Source: a virus (taxonomy: Duplodnaviria; Heunggongvirae; Uroviricota; Caudoviricetes). From it: 9,822 nt of DNA. The notes beneath the pieces are model-generated. The model did no database searches, was not told where the DNA came from, and saw only the letters and a list, made by a program, of their open reading frames with translations. Position numbers and translations under genes: made by a program. Positions 2,617 through 8,622 of the stretch are shown one piece after another. Numbering within the stretch: position 1 is the stretch's first letter; every line of letters begins with the position of its first letter. The stretch lies in the IMG/VR virus record IMGVR_UViG_3300011952_000030; one strand, written 5' to 3'.

Positions 2617-3603
2617 TTAGGCCAGCACACCAATTGCCAGCGCGCGATCGATAAATCGAAAAATCAGCTCCAGTTGGGAGCCATACTTCTCTTCAAATGC
2701 CACGGTATCCGTATGCAACTCGTCGTGATGCTTTCTGCACAAAGGCAACACAAAGAGATCATGTGCTTTGGTTCCCATTCCGCCCTGCCCGTGACCAATC
2801 AGATGATGCGGATCGTCGGCTGGCATCCCGCAGCAAGCACACGGCTGTGTCTTAACCCAGCGTGTGTATTTCTCCTTAACCCAACGGTGACGTTTAGGCA
2901 GCTTCATGAAAGATTCCGGAGACTCTGGATCAACGGTGATGCTTACCACCGTCTTTTCCTGTGATGGGTTTTGTTGCTGGTGGGCGTGAGGCAACGGTGC
3001 AAGATTTTTTGTGCGCTGTTTCAATATGCTGGTGGCGGTCTGCTCTCCCGGTACGATGTCGCTTTCGCGGTACACCGAGCAGATTTTTTCCGCTGGTAAT
3101 CCCAGCGAGCGACGTAATACCGCTTCCGGTAGCGCGTCCGCCAGCTGATTGCGGACCGCCCACCAGGATAATTCAGCCAGAGATAATTCACGCTCCTTCG
3201 TACCGCTTATTGCGTGACCGATGACGTCAATCATCCATGCTGCCAGGTTTTGATGAGCAAGTTGCTCGAGTGATTCGGATGTCTGGTCACGCAGTTGGTT
3301 GTCGCAGTGCCAGCACAACACCATTGCGCCGGTACCATATCGGTGAATAACGGTTTCNNNNNNNNNNNNNNNNNNNNNNNNNNNNNNNNNNNNNNNNNNN
3401 NNNNNNNNNNNNNNNNNNNNNNNNNNNNNNNNNNNNNNNNNNNNNNNNNNNNNNNNNNNNNNNNNNNGCAGATTACGCATGCTTTTCGGTTCCGGCTCCA
3501 CCAGTACCCGGGTATTGTGGAATACCGGCATGGATTCACGGCCCGGCTTAACGACCACCAGCCCGAGTTCCGGTACCAGAACAGGTCGAAGTAATACCCG
3601 CAC
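2617..3603 (-). CDS. ydfU: DUF968 (YdfU-like) phage protein with a C-terminal HNH/zinc-like motif; the interior is unresolved (N-run 3358-3467)
   Basis: The C-terminal part carries PCACCG...[16 protein letters not shown]...[12 protein letters not shown], typical of DUF968 proteins encoded next to Q in Qin-type prophages. The GTG start at 3603 sits 4 nt after GGAGG and 1 nt after the upstream stop, which suggests coupling. The reading frame is preserved across the 110 N. About 37 codons are unknown. Confidence 0.7.
3358..3467. other. Run of 110 unresolved bases (N)
   Basis: Directly visible in the sequence. It falls inside the DUF968 ORF. Confidence 1.
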
Positions 3604-4417: not shown

Positions 4418-4573
4418 TTACTCCTCAGGTTCGTAAGCTGTGAAGACAGCGACCTCCGTCTGGCCGGTTCGGATTCGTACCTCGCAGAGGTCTTTCCTCG
4501 TTACCAGTGCCGTCACTATGACGGTTAAACAGATGACGATCAGGGCGATTAACATCGCCTTTTGCTGCTTCAT
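4418..4573 (-). CDS. hokD: Hok-family type I toxin, 51 aa
   Basis: MKQQKAMLIALIVICLTVIVTALVTRKDLCEVRIRTGQTEVAVFTAYEPEE matches HokD (RelF) as I remember it. AAGGAG lies 9 nt upstream of the ATG at 4573. Confidence 0.9.
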   Translation of the reverse strand: MKQQKAMLIALIVICLTVIVTALVTRKDLCEVRIRTGQTEVAVFTAYEPEE

Positions 4574-4630
4574 AGCCTGCTTCTCCTTGCCTTTCGGCAC
4601 GTAAGAGGCTAACCTACATGTGTCTAGCAT
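4418..4630 (-). CDS. Mok-like reading frame: an in-frame 19-codon N-terminal extension of hok (70 aa)
   Basis: The ATG at 4630 opens MLDTCRLASYVPKGKEKQA and runs in frame into hok. Chromosomal mok frames such as mokC are likewise about 19 codons longer than their hok. The position corresponds to the mok start of plasmid R1 parB in an alignment made from memory. Confidence 0.55.
   Translation of the reverse strand: MLDTCRLASYVPKGKEKQAMKQQKAMLIALIVICLTVIVTALVTRKDLCEVRIRTGQTEVAVFTAYEPEE
4587..4615 (+). promoter_or_regulatory. Sok antisense promoter
   Basis: TTGCCT (4587-4592), a 17-nt spacer, then TAACCT (4610-4615). It is colinear with the R1 sok promoter as I recall it (TTGCGC, 17 nt, TATCCT), including the shared spacer end GTAAGAGGC. 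Confidence 0.55.
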
Positions 4631-4697
4631 GAAATTGGCCTCAGATTAATGTTAAGCGTCTTGCAGGACGCGTAATGTTAACTGGGGCTTTTCTCTA
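4622..4697 (+). ncRNA. sok: Sok-like antisense RNA (about 75 nt), complementary to the mok start and leader
   Basis: It starts about 7 nt after the -10. A 15-bp stem, 4646-4660 paired with 4667-4681, contains 2 G-U pairs and 1 mismatch and has the loop TTGCAG. This is followed by CUGGGGCUUUUCUCU, the same hairpin-GGGGCU-U-rich ending as R1 Sok. The ends are approximate. Confidence 0.6.
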
Positions 4698-4748
4698 TCT
4701 GCCGTTGGTGTTCATGCCCGAGGCAGATAGCCTCAAGCACCCGCAGGC

Positions 4749-4777
4749 ATTCTACTTAACTCCCGTTATCTCGCCAA
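4749..4777 (-). promoter_or_regulatory. hok/mok mRNA promoter
   Basis: On the minus strand: TTGGCG (4777-4772), a 17-nt spacer, then TAGAAT (4754-4749). The predicted start is about 7 nt later, at GTGCTTGAGGC (4740-4730), which corresponds to the conserved 5' tac element of hok mRNAs. Confidence 0.5.
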
Positions 4778-4784
4778 TATGAAA

Positions 4785-4871
4785 TCAGTCAGAAAGGCGA
4801 TCCATAAGAATAACAGAACAATAAATTACCCGCACCACCGCAATAGTCAGCGAACATTTAAGAACCAACAT
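4785..4871 (-). CDS. Possible 28-aa hydrophobic small protein (MLVLKCSLTIAVVRVIYCSVILMDRLSD)
   Basis: It is below the ORF-track cutoff and was found by hand translation. The ATG at 4871 is preceded by GGGAGG with a 5-nt spacer. The product has one hydrophobic helix and a charged tail. There is no homology evidence. Confidence 0.3.
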   Translation of the reverse strand: MLVLKCSLTIAVVRVIYCSVILMDRLSD

Positions 4872-4934
4872 GACAGCCTCCCACATTTAAAGTACGTATG
4901 TTCTAATAAATATAAATGGCATGATTCTGCGAAA

Positions 4935-4951
4935 TACTTACATAAGCAATT
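4935..4951 (+). repeat. Left copy of a 17-bp imperfect direct repeat (TACTTACATAAGCAATT) flanking the low-GC operon
   Basis: 14 of 17 positions match 7982-7998 (TACTTCCATAACCAACT). It abuts the 29-bp palindrome. Statistical support is modest. Confidence 0.35.
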
Positions 4952-4980
4952 CGCTCAAATCTGACTGTCAGTTTTGAGCG
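4952..4980. repeat. 29-bp near-perfect palindrome CGCTCAAAtCTGACtGTCAGtTTTGAGCG
   Basis: The outer arms are 8 bp and the inner arms 5 bp, with a T-T mismatch between them and a single central T. It lies 38 nt downstream of the ATPase stop. Neither strand has a flanking U-run, so it is not a canonical intrinsic terminator. Confidence 0.9.
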
Positions 4981-5018
4981 AGAAAAATGATATCTACATA
5001 TCTATCAAATTACAAATC

Positions 5019-6743
5019 TTAAAGCCTAAAAAACTTATCGTCCTCCCCAAGCTCAAGCACAACACTATTATTGATGAAGTCTTGATCAATATTCTCCAAC
5101 TTGTCTTTAAGAATAGCCAATATATATTGACCATTAATCCCCGAAGCTATCTCGAATAACTTATTTATTTGATTTACATGAATTGCCTCAATTCCATCAT
5201 GAGCTATAAAACGTGGTGTTCTGGCTTCTAAAGACTCCTGGACAGATAAATAGGCAAAATCTAAAGAGGCAACCTGGGCTTTCTTTTTTCCTTCTCCCTG
5301 ATTACCTGATGTGAGCAAAGTTCCTAAAGGTTCAATGGTAAAAACGAAAGAACCGGAGGAATCTTTATAGGAAAGAATATATTCATCCTGATATAATTTT
5401 TTAGTATATAAAGAAAAATAGGAATTGAATAGCGCAAGACGTTTGTTAAAATCGTCAAGTTTAGATTTTAATCTATCTGACACATCATTAAACTTTGCTT
5501 TCAGTATATTAAAGTTGTTCTCCATCTCTTGGATTTGAAGTAGTCCAGCTTCAAGCCCACCTTTTTCTTCAAATAATGAATTTAATTTTTTTTGCATTAT
5601 TTGCAGGTCTGCCAATGTCCCATGCGAAGACAAACTCTTTAAAAGCTCTGATTCTTGAGTCAATAAGTTATTTAGTTCATCTTTATATTTGGAAATTTCT
5701 TGCAGCACTGGCTGCATTTGTTTTCTAATAAACTCAGCTTTTTTTACAAGCATTTTATTATGAAACGAAAGTAGCTCAGTAAACTCTTTGTTTAAGTTAC
5801 CTAACCGATCAGTTGCTTCTAAGTACAACTTCTGTAGATCTAGTGTATTTATATTTTCATGACTTTTTTCCAGATCTAGTATAGCCTTATCGTTTAATTT
5901 TTGCTTAAACTCCAAAGATGATAGTGTGATAGAAACTTCACTAATTTTAATTTTTAACTCATTTAACTCAGCAAGCATATCATTATAAGAGTCTGCCACT
6001 TGAAAATTAGAAATTAACTCTTCTTGTGCTATAATATCTCTATTTATAATTGCAATAGCTTGTTCCAAAGCATTCTTTGAGCGATGGCGAGTAATTACTT
6101 CATAATCGGATTTCGCCAGTTTATAGGCTTTAGTCACTGACTGTTTTTCATCCAGAATCTGTGAGTTACCGAACCCAAACATAAACAGATTTAACGTTTC
6201 ATATTGTGTATTAGAACCCATTTTTATCGTTTTTAATGCGTTCGACATCTTGTCATGCGTATTTCGAATAACACGTCCCATAATCTCTCGTATGGTCGGT
6301 TTTATCGCGGAATCAAGATATAATGTTCTTTTTAAAGCCTCGTTGAAATCTTTAGCCTTCGTATAGGACTCTTCATTTATTGAGGCTATAACCTTCGTTT
6401 TATTAGTCTCAGATGTAATTTTACGCTTAATTTTTATTACTGGTGCAGTTTTATTATTCAAATCTTTTGTGAGAATTAAACAAAACTCAATCTCGTTCTC
6501 TATCAAATAATTTTTTATAACCGAATTTTCTTTCTTGAATTCAGGATCGGTATAAAAATTCAGTTGTTCTGCTCCAAAACAAAAATCTAAAGCTCTTAAT
6601 ACAGTAGTTTTTCCCACACCATTTCCAGTTTGCTCTTTGCTGGAGGTGTTTCGGTCAATAATCAAATTAACGCCAATGTGAAATTCGATATCACGAATCA
6701 CTCCAAGCCTGAAAGAACTGACTATTAGCCGTTTCAAAAACAT
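5019..6743 (-). CDS. Coiled-coil ABC/SMC-type ATPase, 574 aa (LmuB / ABC-3C ATPase-like, DUF2326-like termini)
   Basis: The P-loop GNGVGKTT is at 6603-6626. A central segment of about 230 residues (about 5394-6101) is heptad-rich and poor in Pro and Gly. A signature-like SGNQGEGKKKA is at 5280-5309 and Walker B RFIAHD at 5196-5213. GGAG lies upstream of the ATG at 6743, and the gene overlaps the upstream ORF by 10 nt. Confidence 0.85.
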   Translation of the reverse strand: MFLKRLIVSSFRLGVIRDIEFHIGVNLIIDRNTSSKEQTGNGVGKTTVLRALDFCFGAEQLNFYTDPEFKKENSVIKNYLIENEIEFCLILTKDLNNKTAPVIKIKRKITSETNKTKVIASINEESYTKAKDFNEALKRTLYLDSAIKPTIREIMGRVIRNTHDKMSNALKTIKMGSNTQYETLNLFMFGFGNSQILDEKQSVTKAYKLAKSDYEVITRHRSKNALEQAIAIINRDIIAQEELISNFQVADSYNDMLAELNELKIKISEVSITLSSLEFKQKLNDKAILDLEKSHENINTLDLQKLYLEATDRLGNLNKEFTELLSFHNKMLVKKAEFIRKQMQPVLQEISKYKDELNNLLTQESELLKSLSSHGTLADLQIMQKKLNSLFEEKGGLEAGLLQIQEMENNFNILKAKFNDVSDRLKSKLDDFNKRLALFNSYFSLYTKKLYQDEYILSYKDSSGSFVFTIEPLGTLLTSGNQGEGKKKAQVASLDFAYLSVQESLEARTPRFIAHDGIEAIHVNQINKLFEIASGINGQYILAILKDKLENIDQDFINNSVVLELGEDDKFFRL

Positions 6744-6970
6744 AATATCAAATCTCCATTTTCGTTAGCATCAACCAGGCCTAATAAATATAGCCAATTT
6801 AAAGTGTAAATATATTGCGTGAATGAAGAGTTGTTATTTTTAGATTTGAATTCATTATACAAGTCTATAATATCAACATACGAATAAGCATTTGAACTCA
6901 TGCATTCTAATAACCGAGCTCCCAGGTAATACAAGGTTTGGCTTGGTTTTGTTACATCAGAGATAATCAT
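6734..6970 (-). CDS. 78-aa small protein, winged-helix-like; candidate middle component (LmuC / ABC-3C MC-like)
   Basis: It shares an ATGA start/stop overlap with the upstream gene and a 10-nt overlap with the ATPase gene. The C-terminal TLNWLYLLGLVDANENGDLI looks like a recognition helix plus beta-wing. Its size and its position immediately 5' of the ATPase fit the middle-component slot. Confidence 0.7.
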   Translation of the reverse strand: MIISDVTKPSQTLYYLGARLLECMSSNAYSYVDIIDLYNEFKSKNNNSSFTQYIYTLNWLYLLGLVDANENGDLILCF

Positions 6971-7563
6971 ATTGGTTTTTCCAGAATCTTACACTCTACG
7001 AATGCATGATAAACGATAAAAGAAGCATGGCATTCGATTTCTTCGCTTGTGTAATTCATTGCCATAAGAGAATTTAAGCATTTCTTAATGATGTGCTCTA
7101 TTACACTGTCTATTATCCAATCTGCAAACTCTCTTACCAATTGAATCTTTAAATTATTCCGTTCCTGAGCATCCTTGCAGCTCTTATACGCTTCTCTATG
7201 TTTAAGCAATAAATCTCCTTGACAATCAAGATATCGTGAATTGATGCTTTTCAGTGCCGTTTCCTTAGCAGTAGGCATACTTTCATTTAATGTTTCATAC
7301 GCTTTATCTATCATCGAAGAATATAGATAGAACCCTTCAATACGTTCTCTATGTTTTATAACATCATTGAAGTCTATTTTATTCTCAATATCATATGGCT
7401 CGTAGTCATTGTTTGTACGAGGATCAATAACATTCGAATCAACTAAAATACCAACAAGATCCATAAAAATCGATGGAGACTTTATAATATCAACAGAGTT
7501 AGAATCGACAACCACCTGCACATTACGTGAGTAATTCCCTGACCTTTGAGTAACACCAACCAT
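6967..7563 (-). CDS. 198-aa largely alpha-helical protein with an N-terminal QRSGNYSRNVQVVV motif; candidate third component (LmuA-CTD-like adaptor or sensor) with no recognisable catalytic motif
   Basis: The ATG at 7563 lies 2 nt after the upstream stop, with GAGG 6 nt upstream. I could see no nuclease, HEPN, Sir2, TIR, protease or lipase signature. The helical C-terminal end is ...FIVYHAFVECKILEKPI. Confidence 0.75.
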   Translation of the reverse strand: MVGVTQRSGNYSRNVQVVVDSNSVDIIKSPSIFMDLVGILVDSNVIDPRTNNDYEPYDIENKIDFNDVIKHRERIEGFYLYSSMIDKAYETLNESMPTAKETALKSINSRYLDCQGDLLLKHREAYKSCKDAQERNNLKIQLVREFADWIIDSVIEHIIKKCLNSLMAMNYTSEEIECHASFIVYHAFVECKILEKPI

Positions 7564-7565
7564 GA

Positions 7566-7805
7566 TCAGCCTCGCTTGTTTTCATTATTTCCAAAAACGA
7601 CCGTCTGATTATTTTTTGAATGGCTACCGCTTTTTTGAATTATTGTATGCCCTGAACTTTTTTTATTAACAATAAATGTACCTAAAAATGTTACAAGAAA
7701 GCTACCAGAAGTGAACATCAATGGCACACTATTGAAGTGATATGCAGCAAAGCCAGCGCAAGCAACGAATGTCAAAGAAAATATTCTAATCATAATTCGG
7801 ATCAT
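7566..7805 (-). CDS. Small 2-TM membrane protein (79 aa from the ATG at 7805; 81 aa from the GTG at 7811) with a polar C-terminal tail
   Basis: Two hydrophobic helices (about 7734-7784 and 7668-7727) are separated by only 2 residues. They are followed by the tail NKKSSGHTIIQKSGSHSKNNQTVVFGNNENKRG. AGGA lies 7 nt upstream of the ATG at 7805. It is the first gene of the tightly packed operon. Confidence 0.7.
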   Translation of the reverse strand: MIRIMIRIFSLTFVACAGFAAYHFNSVPLMFTSGSFLVTFLGTFIVNKKSSGHTIIQKSGSHSKNNQTVVFGNNENKRG

Positions 7806-7909
7806 AGCCACATCCTGTAAGTACTGTTGTCATCTTTTAGTGATTCTTGAATCCCATACTATACAAAAGCTTATCCATCTTTTGTACAAGCTTCCGCTTT
7901 GAAAGTGAC

Positions 7910-7938
7910 ATTATAAAGTAACTACAACTTAGAGTGCA
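7910..7938 (-). promoter_or_regulatory. Candidate promoter of the low-GC operon
   Basis: On the minus strand there is a perfect -10 TATAAT (7915-7910), with a weak -35 TGCACT (7938-7933) at 17-nt spacing. It lies about 95 nt upstream of the first ATG. No better candidate is visible before the N-run. Confidence 0.3.
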
Positions 7939-7981
7939 TCCCCCTAAATATCTCCGATGGTGATAGTTGCTGGCTACAACT

Positions 7982-7998
7982 TACTTCCATAACCAACT
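7982..7998 (+). repeat. Right copy of the 17-bp imperfect direct repeat (TACTTCCATAACCAACT)
   Basis: 14 of 17 positions match 4935-4951 in the same orientation. It lies about 30 nt before the N-run. Confidence 0.35.
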
Positions 7999-8028
7999 AA
8001 CTGGCTTGCTCTGCGTTAATTAGTGCAT

Positions 8029-8085
8029 NNNNNNNNNNNNNNNNNNNNNNNNNNNNNNNNNNNNNNNNNNNNNNNNNNNNNNNNN
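8029..8085. other. Run of 57 unresolved bases (N)
   Basis: Directly visible in the sequence. It is flanked by TGCAT on both sides (8024-8028 and 8086-8090). Confidence 1.
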
Positions 8086-8190
8086 TGCATAGGAATGTCA
8101 GCATTATCCGCTCTTGGCACAAACCAAACGACCACGCTAGCGCTAATCTTGTGCCACGAAAATGTCAATTCACATCTGAACTAATGCTCT

Positions 8191-8622
8191 TTAATCTCGT
8201 CGCTTCAATAGATATCGAACATTTCCCTGATAGAATGCGAGTATACGCTGCATAACTTCAGTCTTCCGGCACTCGCGACAGATTATGTTTAGGCGACTGT
8301 CGTAGCGGCGTATTTCTCCGTCAGGTAATGACCAGATAAGGTCCGGATCAACCACAGCAGGTTTCTTCACCTTTGCCCTCGAGAGTTTTTTGCGGGCGTG
8401 TTGCCAGTCCTTACGCGCCTGTTCAGACGGGAATAACCCGTAGCCGGAGTTGTATACATCGCCACTGGCTACCAGCTCTCTGGCAAGAACGCTCATCAGA
8501 TATCTAGTCGCACCTGTTTTAGCTTCCAGTTGCCGTAACGTCTCACGACCGCTCTGGCGCACGAGTTCCACCACCTGCCCTTTAATTTTTTCCCGCTCTT
8601 CTTGTGTAAAAACTTTTGCCAC
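8191..8622 (-). CDS. Hypothetical phage protein, 143 aa
   Basis: The GTG start at 8622 is preceded by GGGGGA. The ORF is co-oriented with, and follows, the replication gene. The N-terminal ~55 residues look winged-helix-like (ETLRQLEAKTGATRYLMSVLARELVASGDV), and the C-terminus has a CRECRK motif. I recognise no family. Confidence 0.7.
   Translation of the reverse strand: MAKVFTQEEREKIKGQVVELVRQSGRETLRQLEAKTGATRYLMSVLARELVASGDVYNSGYGLFPSEQARKDWQHARKKLSRAKVKKPAVVDPDLIWSLPDGEIRRYDSRLNIICRECRKTEVMQRILAFYQGNVRYLLKRRD

Follow-up and report, generated by a model that had tools for sequence, protein, structure and literature searches.

The low-G+C block at 5019–7811 of the window (the whole 9822-nucleotide stretch of Caudoviricetes DNA that was analysed) harbours a cassette which, from the sequence relationships of its products, is a four-gene member of the ABC-three-component (ABC-3C)/short-Lamassu superfamily and a candidate anti-phage defence system; it forms part of the cargo of a Qin-like prophage. 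The cassette encodes no enzyme that would kill the infected cell. Its LmuA-like protein and a small membrane protein encoded immediately upstream share a matched motif, N-terminal in the former and in the tail of the latter, which suggests a new killing route for the widespread Lamassu/ABC-3C systems. It is considered somewhat probable that the role of effector falls to the membrane protein, which would be recruited in trans by way of this motif.

Organization of the cassette

The four open reading frames, whose coordinates were rechecked, are packed head to tail on the minus strand (Table 1), as reported in a preliminary description of this DNA, and the gene junctions were also read correctly there: a 2 nt gap at 7564–7565, an ATGA overlap at 6967–6970 and a 10 nt overlap at 6734–6743. 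The low G+C content of the block, first noticed from hand counts, is evident over its full length (0.332 versus 0.499 and 0.475 in the flanks). The first gene had been described as encoding 81 residues; while the corresponding frame (7566–7811) exists, its start is most likely to be ATG 7805, yielding 79 residues, and not GTG 7811, since the RefSeq gene starts at ATG 7805, all homologues align from this methionine and an AGGA sequence precedes the ATG by 9 nt, whereas no spacing separates it from the GTG. Shine–Dalgarno-type sites (GAGG and GGAG) also precede the CTD10 and ATPase genes; the site in front of the MC6 gene (GGAA) is weak. The promoter presumably lies in the upstream non-coding region, as the gene layout suggests; a consensus σ70 scan of this region in the window and in an unmasked copy (L001) revealed nothing convincing, and in two genomes the region contains an IS3 insertion.

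Table 1. Positions of the cassette genes and of their principal sequence features in the window
Feature	Position	Strand	Remarks
Gene 1, small membrane protein	7566..7805	-	79 aa; start ATG 7805
Gene 2, LmuA-like adaptor	6967..7563	-	198 aa; N-terminal matched motif and ABC-3C CTD10
Gene 3, LmuC-like middle component ABC-3C MC6	6734..6970	-	78 aa
Gene 4, LmuB-like SMC/Rad50-like ABC ATPase	5019..6743	-	574 aa; DUF2326 C-terminal head
Tail motif of membrane protein, residues 54-72 (TIIQKSGSHSKNNQTVVFG)	7590..7646	-	Matches CTD10 N-terminus
N-terminal motif of CTD10 protein, residues 3-21 (GVTQRSGNYSRNVQVVVDS)	7501..7557	-	Counterpart of membrane tail
Walker A/P-loop GNGVGKTT of ATPase, residues 40-47	6603..6626	-	At least 90% conserved in 53 homologues
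Walker B FIAHD of ATPase, residues 512-516	5196..5210	-	Followed by G517, conserved E519, H522 and N524-Q525
Presumed antiparallel coiled-coil arm of ATPase, residues ~195-445	5409..6161	-	No CxxC zinc hook
Upstream non-coding region	7806..8190	-	Contains masked N-run 8029-8085

Prophage setting and distribution

The gene order Q–ydfU–rem–hokD/cassette/DUF977–replication–cI/cro, also found in an identical RefSeq genome, places the cassette between the replication genes and hok/rem/ydfU/Q, as had been proposed, and in K-12 Qin the slot upstream of hokD is indeed occupied by relB–relE. Members of the family are carried by prophages, plasmids and a P4-like satellite, where the cassette lies between the integrase gene and psu; a search of a cultured-phage collection did not find it. 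The four-gene layout extends over Enterobacterales, an alphaproteobacterial MAG, Bacteroidota (Larkinella and Chryseobacterium) and contigs of metagenomic or prophage origin that are unclassified, with CTD10 identities down to ~20%.

The replacement of relBE, the intact hok/sok adjoining the cassette and the carriage on prophages, a satellite and plasmids would also be compatible with a role in favour of the prophage itself (addiction, stabilization or superinfection exclusion) in place of general anti-phage abortive infection. Prophage accessory slots often house defence genes, and for this reason the location does not discriminate between these functions. On the other hand, the combination of ATPase, middle component and CTD effector is the architecture of experimentally validated Lamassu defence, and homologues are also found on chromosomes within defence neighbourhoods, beside Mrr-nSTAND3, AAA_15/AAA_21, Abi_2 and Fic genes, making a module of purely prophage benefit improbable.

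Family placement of the ATPase and the middle component

Three of the four proteins belong to families of the ABC-3C set, with Pfam scores that are all above the curated gathering thresholds, and RefSeq ABC-three-component names for cassette proteins are already in use. The 574-residue ATPase matches DUF2326 (4.2e-14), the type suspected from its termini, as well as PHROG 5467 (2e-29) and, over its full length, PADLOC PDC-M68B (1.3e-41), a model of a computational candidate system; the other three proteins gave no PDC-M68A match in PADLOC, and a literature search retrieved no paper mentioning PDC-M68. The 78-residue protein matches MC6 (PF20293; 1.6e-13) over its full length, is named `ABC-three component system middle component 6' in RefSeq and is encoded between the CTD10 and ATPase genes at every locus examined. 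The 198-residue protein matches CTD10 (1.6e-10). In the current literature ABC-3C and LmuACB form one superfamily, in which CTD6–12/MC2–8 systems with an LmuB of ~600 residues constitute the `short' Lamassu subfamily (bioRxiv 10.1101/2025.03.14.643221; bioRxiv 10.1101/2025.04.02.646746; PMC10586767).

The split ABC head recognized earlier in the ATPase is well preserved, the GNGVGKTT, SGNQGEGKKKA and RFIAHD motifs all being at least 90% conserved among 53 homologues. A low Pro+Gly content (2.4%) and abundant E/K/L/Q (43%) over the central 250 residues, together with weak Pfam matches to coiled-coil families within residues ~195–445, are consistent with the coiled coil described between the two halves of the head; cysteine occurs in the protein only at positions 55 and 88. 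The preliminary description would have abandoned a Lamassu/ABC-3C-like assignment had the ATPase proved to be a housekeeping protein or had its homologues kept no company with defence genes or prophages. NCBIfam returned no housekeeping match (RecN, SbcC or RecF), and the neighbourhood survey proposed there placed homologues beside known defence genes and in prophages and the P4-like satellite, so the assignment stands.

A short CTD10 protein without an enzymatic domain

According to Pfam and an AlphaFold2 (AF2) model, the 198-residue protein consists of a 22-residue disordered N-terminus and a helical CTD10 domain and nothing else; neither the profile search nor the model revealed an enzymatic domain, in agreement with the earlier remark that no catalytic motif is visible. 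All 15 close relatives have ~198 residues, and ~140 of the best 150 CTD10 family representatives have 170–225; the short form is thus the rule in its clade and neither a truncation nor a product of decay. Across the family the first 30 residues are enriched in N (15.4% versus 7.4%), Q (6.1% versus 2.7%) and G (8.9% versus 2.8%). The similarity of the fold to the solved LmuA C-terminal domains is weak.

The small membrane protein

The product of gene 1, a hypothetical protein in RefSeq (WP_001367360.1), is predicted to form a two-helix transmembrane hairpin (residues 2–42; AF2 helices 2–24 and 27–42, pLDDT ~90) followed by a tail, and its homologues form 30 clusters of 78–83 residues across Enterobacterales. 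Arg3 and Arg7 at the N-terminus and Lys48 and Lys49 after the second helix fit an N-in/C-in topology, and in 14 of 16 membrane proteins the transmembrane span is succeeded by at least two Lys/Arg residues, from which the tail is predicted to be cytoplasmic. Searches of Pfam, PADLOC, NCBIfam and PHROG gave no family match, the only hit (Hol_Tox in Pfam, E = 0.014) being below threshold.

Linkage to short CTD10 genes and exchange with fused effectors

In each of 16 diverged lineages from several phyla (CTD10 identities of 18–62%, except for one pair at 80%), the gene directly preceding that for the short CTD10 protein is a membrane ORF of 57–102 residues (16 of 16). At 27 sister loci, an HNH-like domain is instead fused at the position of the motif, ahead of the conserved `PS' start of CTD10, and among the 24 that have enough upstream sequence to be counted, not one has a membrane ORF with a matched tail (0 of 24; Fisher p = 1.6e-11). 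SMEK_N and Mrr-like fusions are also found at the CTD10 N-terminal position. The membrane gene and fused enzymatic effectors are mutually exclusive and, as the effector domains sit where the motif would be and the membrane gene is then missing, the membrane protein appears to replace the effector and not to provide an added means of localization.

The 2 nt gap between genes 1 and 2 and the resemblance of the tail to the N-terminus encoded downstream could be taken to indicate a single gene, split by a frameshift or a sequencing error, derived from a TM–CTD10 fusion acting as a classical ABC-3C effector. Such an origin is exceedingly unlikely: it is effectively refuted by the occurrence in all 16 lineages of separate genes in different frames, with a start and a stop codon for each, and by the lack of a TM–CTD10 fusion among 199 CTD10 proteins. 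Moreover, the same gene arrangement recurs in 17 E. coli genomes, and both copies of the motif are kept, which a simple split would not yield.

A motif matched within each locus

The matched motif is an N/Q/G-rich stretch of ~20 residues, nearly identical in the two proteins of the cassette. In the window, the local alignment of the membrane tail with CTD10 residues 3–22 scores 48, where the background is 21.7 ± 6.5, and the invariant Gln57, Gly60, Ser63, Asn65 and Gln67 of the tail mirror Gln6, Gly9, Ser12, Asn14 and Gln16 of the CTD10 protein. Over the 16 lineages, cognate pairs score 45.8 and non-cognate pairs 21.7 ± 6.5 (permutation p ≤ 1e-5), with 11 of the 16 cognate pairs ranking first in both directions; in a conservative subset of ten lineages the values are 47.4 and 20.5 ± 4.3, no permutation out of 500 000 reaches the observed value and reversed tails score 22.3. 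When the two families are compared with hhalign, only tail residues 55–73 and N-terminal residues 3–21 align (E = 9.3e-5). The motif varies among lineages, yet remains matched inside each locus. The two copies share 62% nucleotide identity and, where their residues are identical, use the same codon in 58% of cases, which argues against recent gene conversion. Taken from these alignments, the motifs co-evolve and tie the membrane protein to the CTD10 protein. AF2 places strands at residues 54–57 and 67–70 of the tail, giving a low-confidence β-hairpin over the motif (pLDDT ~52), and leaves the CTD10 motif disordered.

The N/Q/G-rich composition of both motifs might also reflect mere compositional bias or a duplication at the junction, in a decayed Lamassu that lost its effector and lies next to an unrelated holin- or hok-like membrane ORF. 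A preprint on short Lamassu describes a Clade O of more than 100 sequences from over 40 species in which LmuA has `seemingly lost the effector domain', LmuC and LmuB remaining intact (bioRxiv 10.1101/2025.04.02.646746), which could be read in the same sense. Decay is nevertheless very unlikely: the layout and the intact ATPase motifs persist across distant taxa, non-cognate pairs and reversed tails of equal composition score at background, the motif changes between lineages but stays matched, and a lone old duplication whose copies had drifted to 62% identity would have decayed without selection. The proposal in the preliminary description that a membrane protein supplied in trans is the killing module gains strong comparative support from synteny, exclusivity and the co-evolving motif.

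Proposed mechanism

In canonical Lamassu, LmuA begins with a nuclease, protease or Sir2 domain, which becomes active once the C-terminal domain of LmuA, sequestered until DNA is sensed, is freed and oligomerizes; killing is performed by the N-terminal domain and not by LmuB (bioRxiv 10.1101/2025.03.14.643221). By extrapolation from CTD7-type systems, the ATPase and MC6 would most likely hold the CTD10 protein inactive, as in the solved Lamassu structures, until it is set free in response to a sign of infection; this cue is probably aberrant DNA of a phage or plasmid, for example DNA ends. The freed CTD10 proteins would then cluster, gathering their N-terminal motifs into a β-structured seed that would capture or template the matching tails, whereupon the membrane protein would oligomerize in the inner membrane; membrane integrity would be lost and the infection aborted. 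The coupling may rely on amyloid-like templating, as in the E. coli Bab/Agp pair, in which an amyloid motif common to the C-terminus of one protein and the N-terminus of the other serves, when T5 infects, to activate a small effector that targets the membrane (bioRxiv 10.1101/2024.11.07.622273).

Synteny and motif matching demonstrate partnership only and not toxicity, and the membrane protein has no match among known toxin families. The motifs might therefore couple the proteins in a different manner, the membrane protein being an anchor, localizer or negative regulator that tethers or sequesters the CTD10–MC6–ATPase assembly at the inner membrane, for instance at sites of phage DNA entry, and interference being exerted by the SMC-like ATPase on DNA or by a host factor; SMC-family systems can indeed restrict DNA directly (PMC10586767). 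This arrangement is regarded as rather unlikely, given that HNH, SMEK and Mrr-like effectors take the position of the motif where the membrane gene is absent, that Lamassu kills through LmuA and that control of this kind over a small membrane-targeting killer has a direct precedent in Bab/Agp.

Comparison with known systems

The cassette shares with short Lamassu/ABC-3C systems (LmuA–LmuC–LmuB, including DdmABC of V. cholerae and LmuACB of Salmonella) the order of effector or adaptor, middle component and ~600-residue ATPase, a middle component from the MC1–8 set and an adaptor ending in a CTD1–12 domain. The HNH and SMEK effectors reported to be specific to short Lamassu are both present at sister loci, and the LmuB of Vc-Cap4 likewise lacks a zinc hook (bioRxiv 10.1101/2025.04.02.646746). 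It differs from these systems in that its LmuA-like protein has no N-terminal enzymatic effector and in its obligately linked fourth gene. Its ATPase also differs, being barely detected by the PADLOC LmuB models (6e-4) and having a Walker B of the form hhhhD-G/R, where short LmuB is reported to have hhhhD[Q/S/T/E] (bioRxiv 10.1101/2025.04.02.646746). Clade O fits the short CTD10 proteins by description alone; the words `membrane' and `transmembrane' are absent from the text of that preprint, and the upstream membrane gene and the matched motif are thus not described there. The invariable linkage, the matched motif and the exclusivity with fused effectors appear to be new.

Bab/Agp (BASS11 of E. 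coli ECOR25) is likewise encoded by adjacent genes in a prophage defence island, and its small protein combines an N-terminal hydrophobic helix with a C-terminal motif of ~20–25 residues matching the extreme N-terminus of the neighbouring sensor; its effector acts at the membrane, the logic proposed here for the cassette. However, its sensor is a single TPR–GreA/B–PIN protein and not an SMC-like ATPase complex, and Bab, a helical `Babybell' domain, is soluble and moves to the membrane, whereas the cassette protein is predicted to be integral, with one or two helices. The motifs are likened by their arrangement, amyloid having been demonstrated for BASS11 and being hypothesized for the cassette. 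In the Bell/NLR BASS pairs of filamentous bacteria and in fungal HET-S/NWD2, some members of a family of oligomerizing sensors have likewise swapped the N-terminal effector domain for a short motif that also occurs in a separately encoded membrane-targeting effector; the sensors concerned, which are NACHT/NB-ARC STAND NTPases, have been reported as rare in Proteobacteria, while the motif of the cassette is borne by the CTD adaptor of an ABC/SMC-type system.

Organization and genomic setting of the cassette

The four minus-strand genes of the cassette, listed in the table together with the neighbouring features, encode a small membrane protein, a CTD10 protein (LmuA-like), an MC6 protein (LmuC-like) and an SMC/Rad50-like ATPase (LmuB-like), in this order. 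The packed ORFs and their junctions (a 2 nt gap, an ATGA overlap and a 10 nt overlap) were found as first described, and the low G+C content noted for the block was reproduced (0.332, compared with 0.499 and 0.475 in the flanks). For the first gene the ORF itself stands, but the GTG at 7811 from which it had been read (81 aa) is a less probable start than the ATG at 7805, which yields a protein of 79 aa: the latter is the RefSeq start, all homologues align from that methionine and an AGGA sequence, directly abutting the GTG, lies 9 nt upstream of the ATG. Three of the cassette genes are named ABC-three-component (ABC-3C) proteins in RefSeq and the first is annotated as hypothetical.

An identical stretch is present in 17 of 5,426 complete Escherichia coli genomes, on the chromosome every time. 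In NZ_AP021933.1 (E. coli WP2-W18-ESBL-08), where positions 4950-8200 of the window correspond to about 2453879-2457130, the cassette is part of a Qin-like prophage, flanked by DUF977 and replication genes on one side and by hokD-rem-ydfU-Q on the other; K-12 Qin has relB-relE at this very position, in agreement with the preliminary description. The YbgA-family and lipocalin-family genes of the same prophage occupy a second variable slot, which holds cspB/cspF in K-12 Qin.

Two runs of N interrupt the window, and both look like masking; the same stretch is unmasked in the NZ_AP021933.1 copy. The run upstream of the cassette is where its promoter should be expected, and consensus scans for promoters and terminators, run on the AT-rich cassette and on the region upstream of it, gave no useful indication. 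In strain KK05-19 (NZ_CM144239.1) an IS3 element at 4698-5860, equivalent to about position 8000 of the window, is inserted approximately 190 nt upstream of the membrane-protein gene, and OZ392455, apparently a duplicate record of this strain, displays the same insertion; the four genes are intact. Placed in the presumed promoter region, the element could silence or deregulate the cassette.

Features of the cassette and of its surroundings (window coordinates unless residues are specified)
Feature	Position	Strand	Remarks
Membrane-protein gene	7566-7811	minus	81 aa from GTG 7811
CTD10-protein gene	6967-7563	minus	198 aa
MC6 gene	6734-6970	minus	78 aa
ATPase gene	5019-6743	minus	574 aa
Walker A, G40-N-x-V-G-K-T-T47	ATPase residues 40-47	minus	kept across 53 homologues
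G-x-G-x-K-K signature-like motif	ATPase residues 480-488	minus	kept across 53 homologues
Walker B ending in D516	5196-5210	minus	followed by conserved E519, H522 and N524-Q525
hok/sok type I toxin-antitoxin module	4418-4742	minus	intact; directly downstream of the cassette
hokD CDS	4418-4573	minus	part of the intact hok/sok module
sok antitoxin RNA, full length	4568-4742		RF01794, 115 bits
YbgA-family gene	390-1349	minus	prophage cargo, between Q antiterminator and lysis genes
Lipocalin-family gene	1536-2066	plus	prophage cargo, between Q antiterminator and lysis genes
N-run	3358-3467		110 bases, inside the ydfU/DUF968 gene
N-run	8029-8085		57 bases, non-coding, upstream of the cassette

Assignment to the short-Lamassu/ABC-3C family

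The suspected kinship with ABC-3C systems was borne out by profile searches, in which three of the cassette proteins scored above the curated Pfam thresholds. The 78 aa product of the gene lying between those of the CTD10 protein and the ATPase corresponds to the ABC-3C middle component MC6 (PF20293, E = 1.6e-13, 50.8 bits against a cut-off of 27.2), residues 36-195 of the 198 aa protein correspond to ABC-3C CTD10 (PF20275, E = 1.6e-10, 42.1 bits against a cut-off of 28.1) and the C-terminal head of the ATPase matches DUF2326 (E = 4.2e-14), the type that had been read from its termini. Among the PADLOC models, the candidate PDC-M68B matches the ATPase over its full length (E = 1.3e-41), and the LmuB models reach only 6e-4 and 0.03, in an alignment that is colinear over residues 1-459. 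PDC-M68A has no match among the other three cassette proteins at E <= 1, and a literature search found the name PDC-M68 in no paper. A sequence search of the PDB with the ATPase and CTD10 profiles returned nothing below E = 0.4.

The ATPase displays the split ABC head that had been recognized by eye, with Walker A, a signature-like motif and Walker B, kept across 53 distinct homologues, arranged around a coiled-coil-like segment of about 250 residues (195-445; 2.4% Pro+Gly). A housekeeping ATPase of the RecN, SbcC or RecF type was considered and rejected, since NCBIfam gave no match. The enzyme has no CxxC zinc hook, its sole cysteines being C55 and C88; as short LmuB proteins may have zero, one or two such hooks at the coiled-coil apex, according to a preprint on this sub-family (bioRxiv 10.1101/2025.04.02.646746), this absence does not discriminate. 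The Walker B motif departs from the form hhhhD[Q/S/T/E] that the same preprint gives for short LmuB (bioRxiv 10.1101/2025.04.02.646746), reading FIAHD-G in the window and D-R in a homologous locus (L010). Across this ATPase family, hhhhD is followed by G or R and a glutamate is conserved three residues past the Walker B aspartate (D516-G-I-E519); the catalytic base may occupy a shifted position.

Recent Lamassu papers equate LmuA-LmuC-LmuB with ABC-3C and define CTD6-12/MC2-8 systems with an LmuB of about 600 aa and zero to two zinc hooks as a 'short' sub-family (bioRxiv 10.1101/2025.03.14.643221; bioRxiv 10.1101/2025.04.02.646746). By this definition, and from the families of its proteins, the cassette, with an ATPase of fitting length (574 aa), is classified as a short-Lamassu/ABC-3C system of a DUF2326-MC6-CTD10 branch; its membership of ABC-3C is practically certain.

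A CTD10 protein devoid of an effector domain

The cassette resembles other ABC-3C systems in its ABC ATPase with a split head, its middle gene of the MC1-MC8 type and its third component of the CTD1-CTD12 type, and differs from their definition in that this third component carries no N-terminal enzymatic or toxic domain. Indeed, in line with the lack of a visible catalytic motif remarked at first sight, only 22-35 residues precede the CTD10 domain and no domain was detected in them; in an AF2 model built on a 56-sequence alignment (pLDDT 80.5), residues 1-22 are disordered and residues 29-189 are confidently all-helical. The short form is not a truncation, since it is shared by close relatives and by representatives of the family: the 15 close relatives are all 195-199 aa long except for one 137 aa partial sequence, and an exhaustive profile search yielded 502 CTD10 family representatives, among the best 150 of which about 140 measure 170-225 aa. 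A few representatives have an N-terminal HNH-like domain (P0163, P0164 and P0186), SMEK_N (P0173, E = 1.9e-35) or a Mrr_cat-like domain (P0132), so that, judging from domain architectures, at least four alternative modules, the short tag included, fill the N-terminal position.

HNH and SMEK effectors are described as specific to short Lamassu in the sub-family preprint, which also notices an effector-less clade and leaves it without an explanation (bioRxiv 10.1101/2025.04.02.646746). The words 'membrane' and 'transmembrane' are absent from its text.

A Foldseek search with the CTD10 model returned a sole meaningful match, the C-terminal part of Bacillus subtilis YydB in an integrative YydD-YydB model (probability 1.0, TM-score 0.59). 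A Mycoplasma mycoides protein annotated with a CTD10 domain, Ben_0691, has been studied as a host-cell interacting factor (PMC12618582), an unexpected setting for an ABC-3C component.

A small membrane protein as a probable substitute for the fused effector domain

The ATPase and the CTD10 protein were used to collect 67 further loci, by contig look-ups and from collections of genomes, metagenomes and viruses, and these loci fall into two classes. In class A (27 loci), an HNH-like domain is fused to the CTD10 domain immediately ahead of its conserved initial 'PS', and there is no small upstream membrane ORF. In class B the CTD10 protein is short and is always immediately preceded by an ORF of 57-102 aa, the product of which has a hydrophobic helix or hairpin at its N-terminus and, behind it, a tail matching the N-terminus of the CTD10 protein. 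The upstream membrane ORF and the fused domain are thus mutually exclusive, the former being found in 16/16 class B and 0/24 class A lineages or loci compared (Fisher p = 1.6e-11). It is mainly this swap, of an enzymatic domain for a tag plus a membrane protein in trans, that argues for the membrane protein being the effector and not an accessory, as the preliminary description had ventured; an effector role is considered probable, with moderate confidence.

Homologues of the 79 aa protein, 78-83 aa in length, are encoded in Serratia, Morganella, Providencia, Klebsiella, Pantoea, Citrobacter and other genera. AF2 predicts a helical hairpin spanning residues 2-42 (pLDDT approximately 90) and, in the tail behind it, two short strands of low confidence. 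In the partner proteins from outside Enterobacterales (L068-L075) the N-terminal helix is single, and the sequence often starts M-[DE]-I-[LF]-x-x-[LI]-[AV], for example MEILDTLANICSILAFIVSLF. Basic residues on the C-terminal side of the hydrophobic span, seen in 14 of 16 small membrane proteins, predict a cytoplasmic tail, in the same compartment as the CTD10 protein.

The two proteins carry matched, co-evolving motifs

The tail of the membrane protein, TIIQKSGSHSKNNQTVVFG, resembles the N-terminus of the CTD10 protein, GVTQRSGNYSRNVQVVVDS, encoded by a gene only 2 nt away. The motif extends over residues 54-72 of 79 in the former and residues 3-21 of 198 in the latter, and the same layout is kept in 16/16 lineages. 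The invariant residues Q-x-x-G-x-x-S-x-N-x-Q coincide in both, and an hhalign comparison of the two enterobacterial families aligned a single stretch, tail residues 55-73 with N-terminal residues 3-21 (E = 9.3e-5). In a distant alphaproteobacterial locus, with an ATPase only 32% identical, a 59 aa single-helix protein ends with SSTGYQAENMTVNN and its CTD10 partner begins with GGTGYQADRMTVHN, a motif unlike that of the window, yet matched within the locus.

The match was quantified by local BLOSUM62 scores between the tail (last 32 aa) and the CTD10-protein N-terminus (first 40 aa) in the 16 class B lineages. Cognate pairs score 45.8 on average, against 21.7±6.5 for non-cognate pairs (permutation p <= 1e-5), and the cognate pair ranks first in both directions in 11/16 lineages, the exceptions being beaten mostly by close relatives. 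In a conservative subset of ten lineages, with CTD10 domains at most about 35% identical, the values are 47.4 and 20.5±4.3, and the observed sum was reached in none of 500,000 permutations (p <= 2e-6). N, Q and G are two to three times over-represented in the first 30 residues across the CTD10 family; a match arising merely from such composition is rejected by the background-level scores of non-cognate pairs and of reversed tails (22.3).

Two alternative origins of the resemblance were also weighed. A split gene, or a frameshifted fusion of the transmembrane and CTD10 proteins, was discarded, with no fusion among 199 CTD10 proteins and with separate ORFs in different frames in all 16 lineages. 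Recent gene conversion or duplication was likewise rejected, given that the motif copies share 62% nucleotide identity and that identical residues use the same codon in only 58% of cases. Taken with the differing frames, these values identify the resemblance as long-term co-evolution at the protein level, and a functional partnership of the membrane and CTD10 proteins through the motif is very probable.

The length and composition of the motif fit the N/Q/G-rich type of about 20-25 residues. No Pfam match to RHIM, Ses_B or HET-s was found in the cassette proteins. In the AF2 models the tail motif forms a β-hairpin at a pLDDT of only about 52 and its N-terminal counterpart is disordered.

A model for effector recruitment

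In solved Lamassu complexes, the C-terminal domain of LmuA is an oligomerization domain that LmuC and two folded LmuB protomers keep bound; sensing of DNA ends frees this domain, the oligomerization of which activates the N-terminal nuclease (bioRxiv 10.1101/2025.03.14.643221). In amyloid-signalling pairs, oligomerization of the sensor gathers short N-terminal motifs, which then template the C-terminal motif of a membrane-targeting effector; one such pair, Bab/Agp of E. coli, confers abortive infection against T5 and is abolished by a single N-to-P substitution in either motif (bioRxiv 10.1101/2024.11.07.622273). A model for the cassette combines the two schemes. The ATPase-MC6 complex would sequester the CTD10 adaptor, which upon infection would be released and clustered; its N-terminal tags would then nucleate the assembly of the membrane-protein tails, and the ensuing oligomerization of the membrane protein would compromise the inner membrane. 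The comparisons establish family membership, synteny, co-evolution of the motifs and mutual exclusivity; the infection cue, sequestration and release, killing and the amyloid nature of the assembly are inferred, and amyloid-like templating is put forward as the coupling only tentatively. The fuller proposition, that a sensor of the SMC family (Lamassu) reaches its executioner through prion-like amyloid templating, the tag of the released, oligomerized CTD10 adaptor converting the matching tail of the membrane protein, which would then assemble into a lethal membrane lesion, is possible but doubtful.

Like the bacterial and fungal amyloid pairs (BASS/FASS; Bab/Agp, Bell/NLR and HET-S/NWD2), the cassette places its motif C-terminally in the presumed effector and at the very N-terminus of the protein on the sensor side, the two genes being neighbours, and its motifs are more alike within than between pairs. 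The sensor differs, being a STAND (NACHT/NB-ARC) NTPase or a TGP protein in those pairs and the CTD10 adaptor of an ABC/SMC-type ATPase here. To our knowledge, all characterized Lamassu/ABC-3C members kill by means of an enzyme fused to LmuA.

Much of this has precedents: the family is known and partly annotated, the effector-less clade has been noticed, and matched-motif signalling to a small membrane effector has been described for the Bab/Agp and Bell/NLR pairs (bioRxiv 10.1101/2024.11.07.622273). We could not find the combination of Lamassu/ABC-3C with a matched-motif membrane partner elsewhere: a literature search returned no paper joining 'Lamassu' with 'amyloid signaling', the Bab/Agp preprint (bioRxiv 10.1101/2024.11.07.622273) mentions neither ABC, SMC nor Lamassu, and the passages found in papers on ABC-3C or CTD10, which do not extend to the original description of ABC-3C (Krishnan et al., NAR 2020), name no membrane partner. 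The cassette departs from the definition of its family in a single defining trait, the effector domain fused to the third component, and a plausible, testable mechanism is offered in its place.

Lamassu/ABC-3C systems, among the most widespread defence families of prokaryotes, occur in approximately 10-15% of genomes, according to two preprints (bioRxiv 10.1101/2025.03.14.643221; bioRxiv 10.1101/2025.04.02.646746), and for their effector-less clade the comparative evidence offers a concrete, testable explanation, namely that the effector would be encoded on its own, as a mini membrane protein, and recruited through a co-evolving peptide tag. Such a tag, linking an effector-less adaptor to its partner across phyla, goes beyond routine annotation of a defence system. 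If the explanation is correct, membrane disruption would join the Lamassu effector repertoire, and tag-matched recruitment of an effector would have a second bacterial example, differing in mechanism from Bab/Agp, the sole experimentally characterized one found among antiphage systems. The release and oligomerization of the C-terminal domain in the structure-based activation model would naturally supply the nucleation step, and matches between terminal motifs would reveal short 'hypothetical' ORFs beside defence genes, a search applicable in general. Should templating also hold, the whole effector-less clade would be explained, amyloid signalling would extend from STAND/TGP sensors to ABC/SMC systems in several bacterial phyla, and the 57-102 aa proteins would constitute a new family of minimal membrane effectors. 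With 17 sequenced carriers, the E. coli example makes experiments straightforward.

Distribution among mobile elements

The anticipated association of homologues with prophage slots and defence genes was recovered, completing the confirmation of the first observation and the support for its interpretation. A 50%-identical four-gene cassette resides next to smpB in a P4-like satellite (L003, 5756-8533; also L007 and L066), between the integrase and psu/ogr-delta genes, a known satellite defence hotspot. Together with the prophage copy, this places the cassette on two or more unrelated kinds of mobile element. Further homologous cassettes adjoin AlpA-type island genes, are embedded in the lysis or tail regions of prophages or occur on IMG/VR prophage contigs, and neighbours elsewhere include Mrr-nSTAND3, Mrr with AAA_21/AAA_15, AAA_15/DUF2813, Abi_2 and Fic. 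The ATPase had no tblastn match in 50,697 cultured phage genomes, and DUF2326 ATPases were found on 24 plasmids. In one metagenomic locus (L045, 94-1006) the membrane-protein ORF and the CTD10 ORF are each split in two, owing either to decay of this copy or to indel errors in the assembly.
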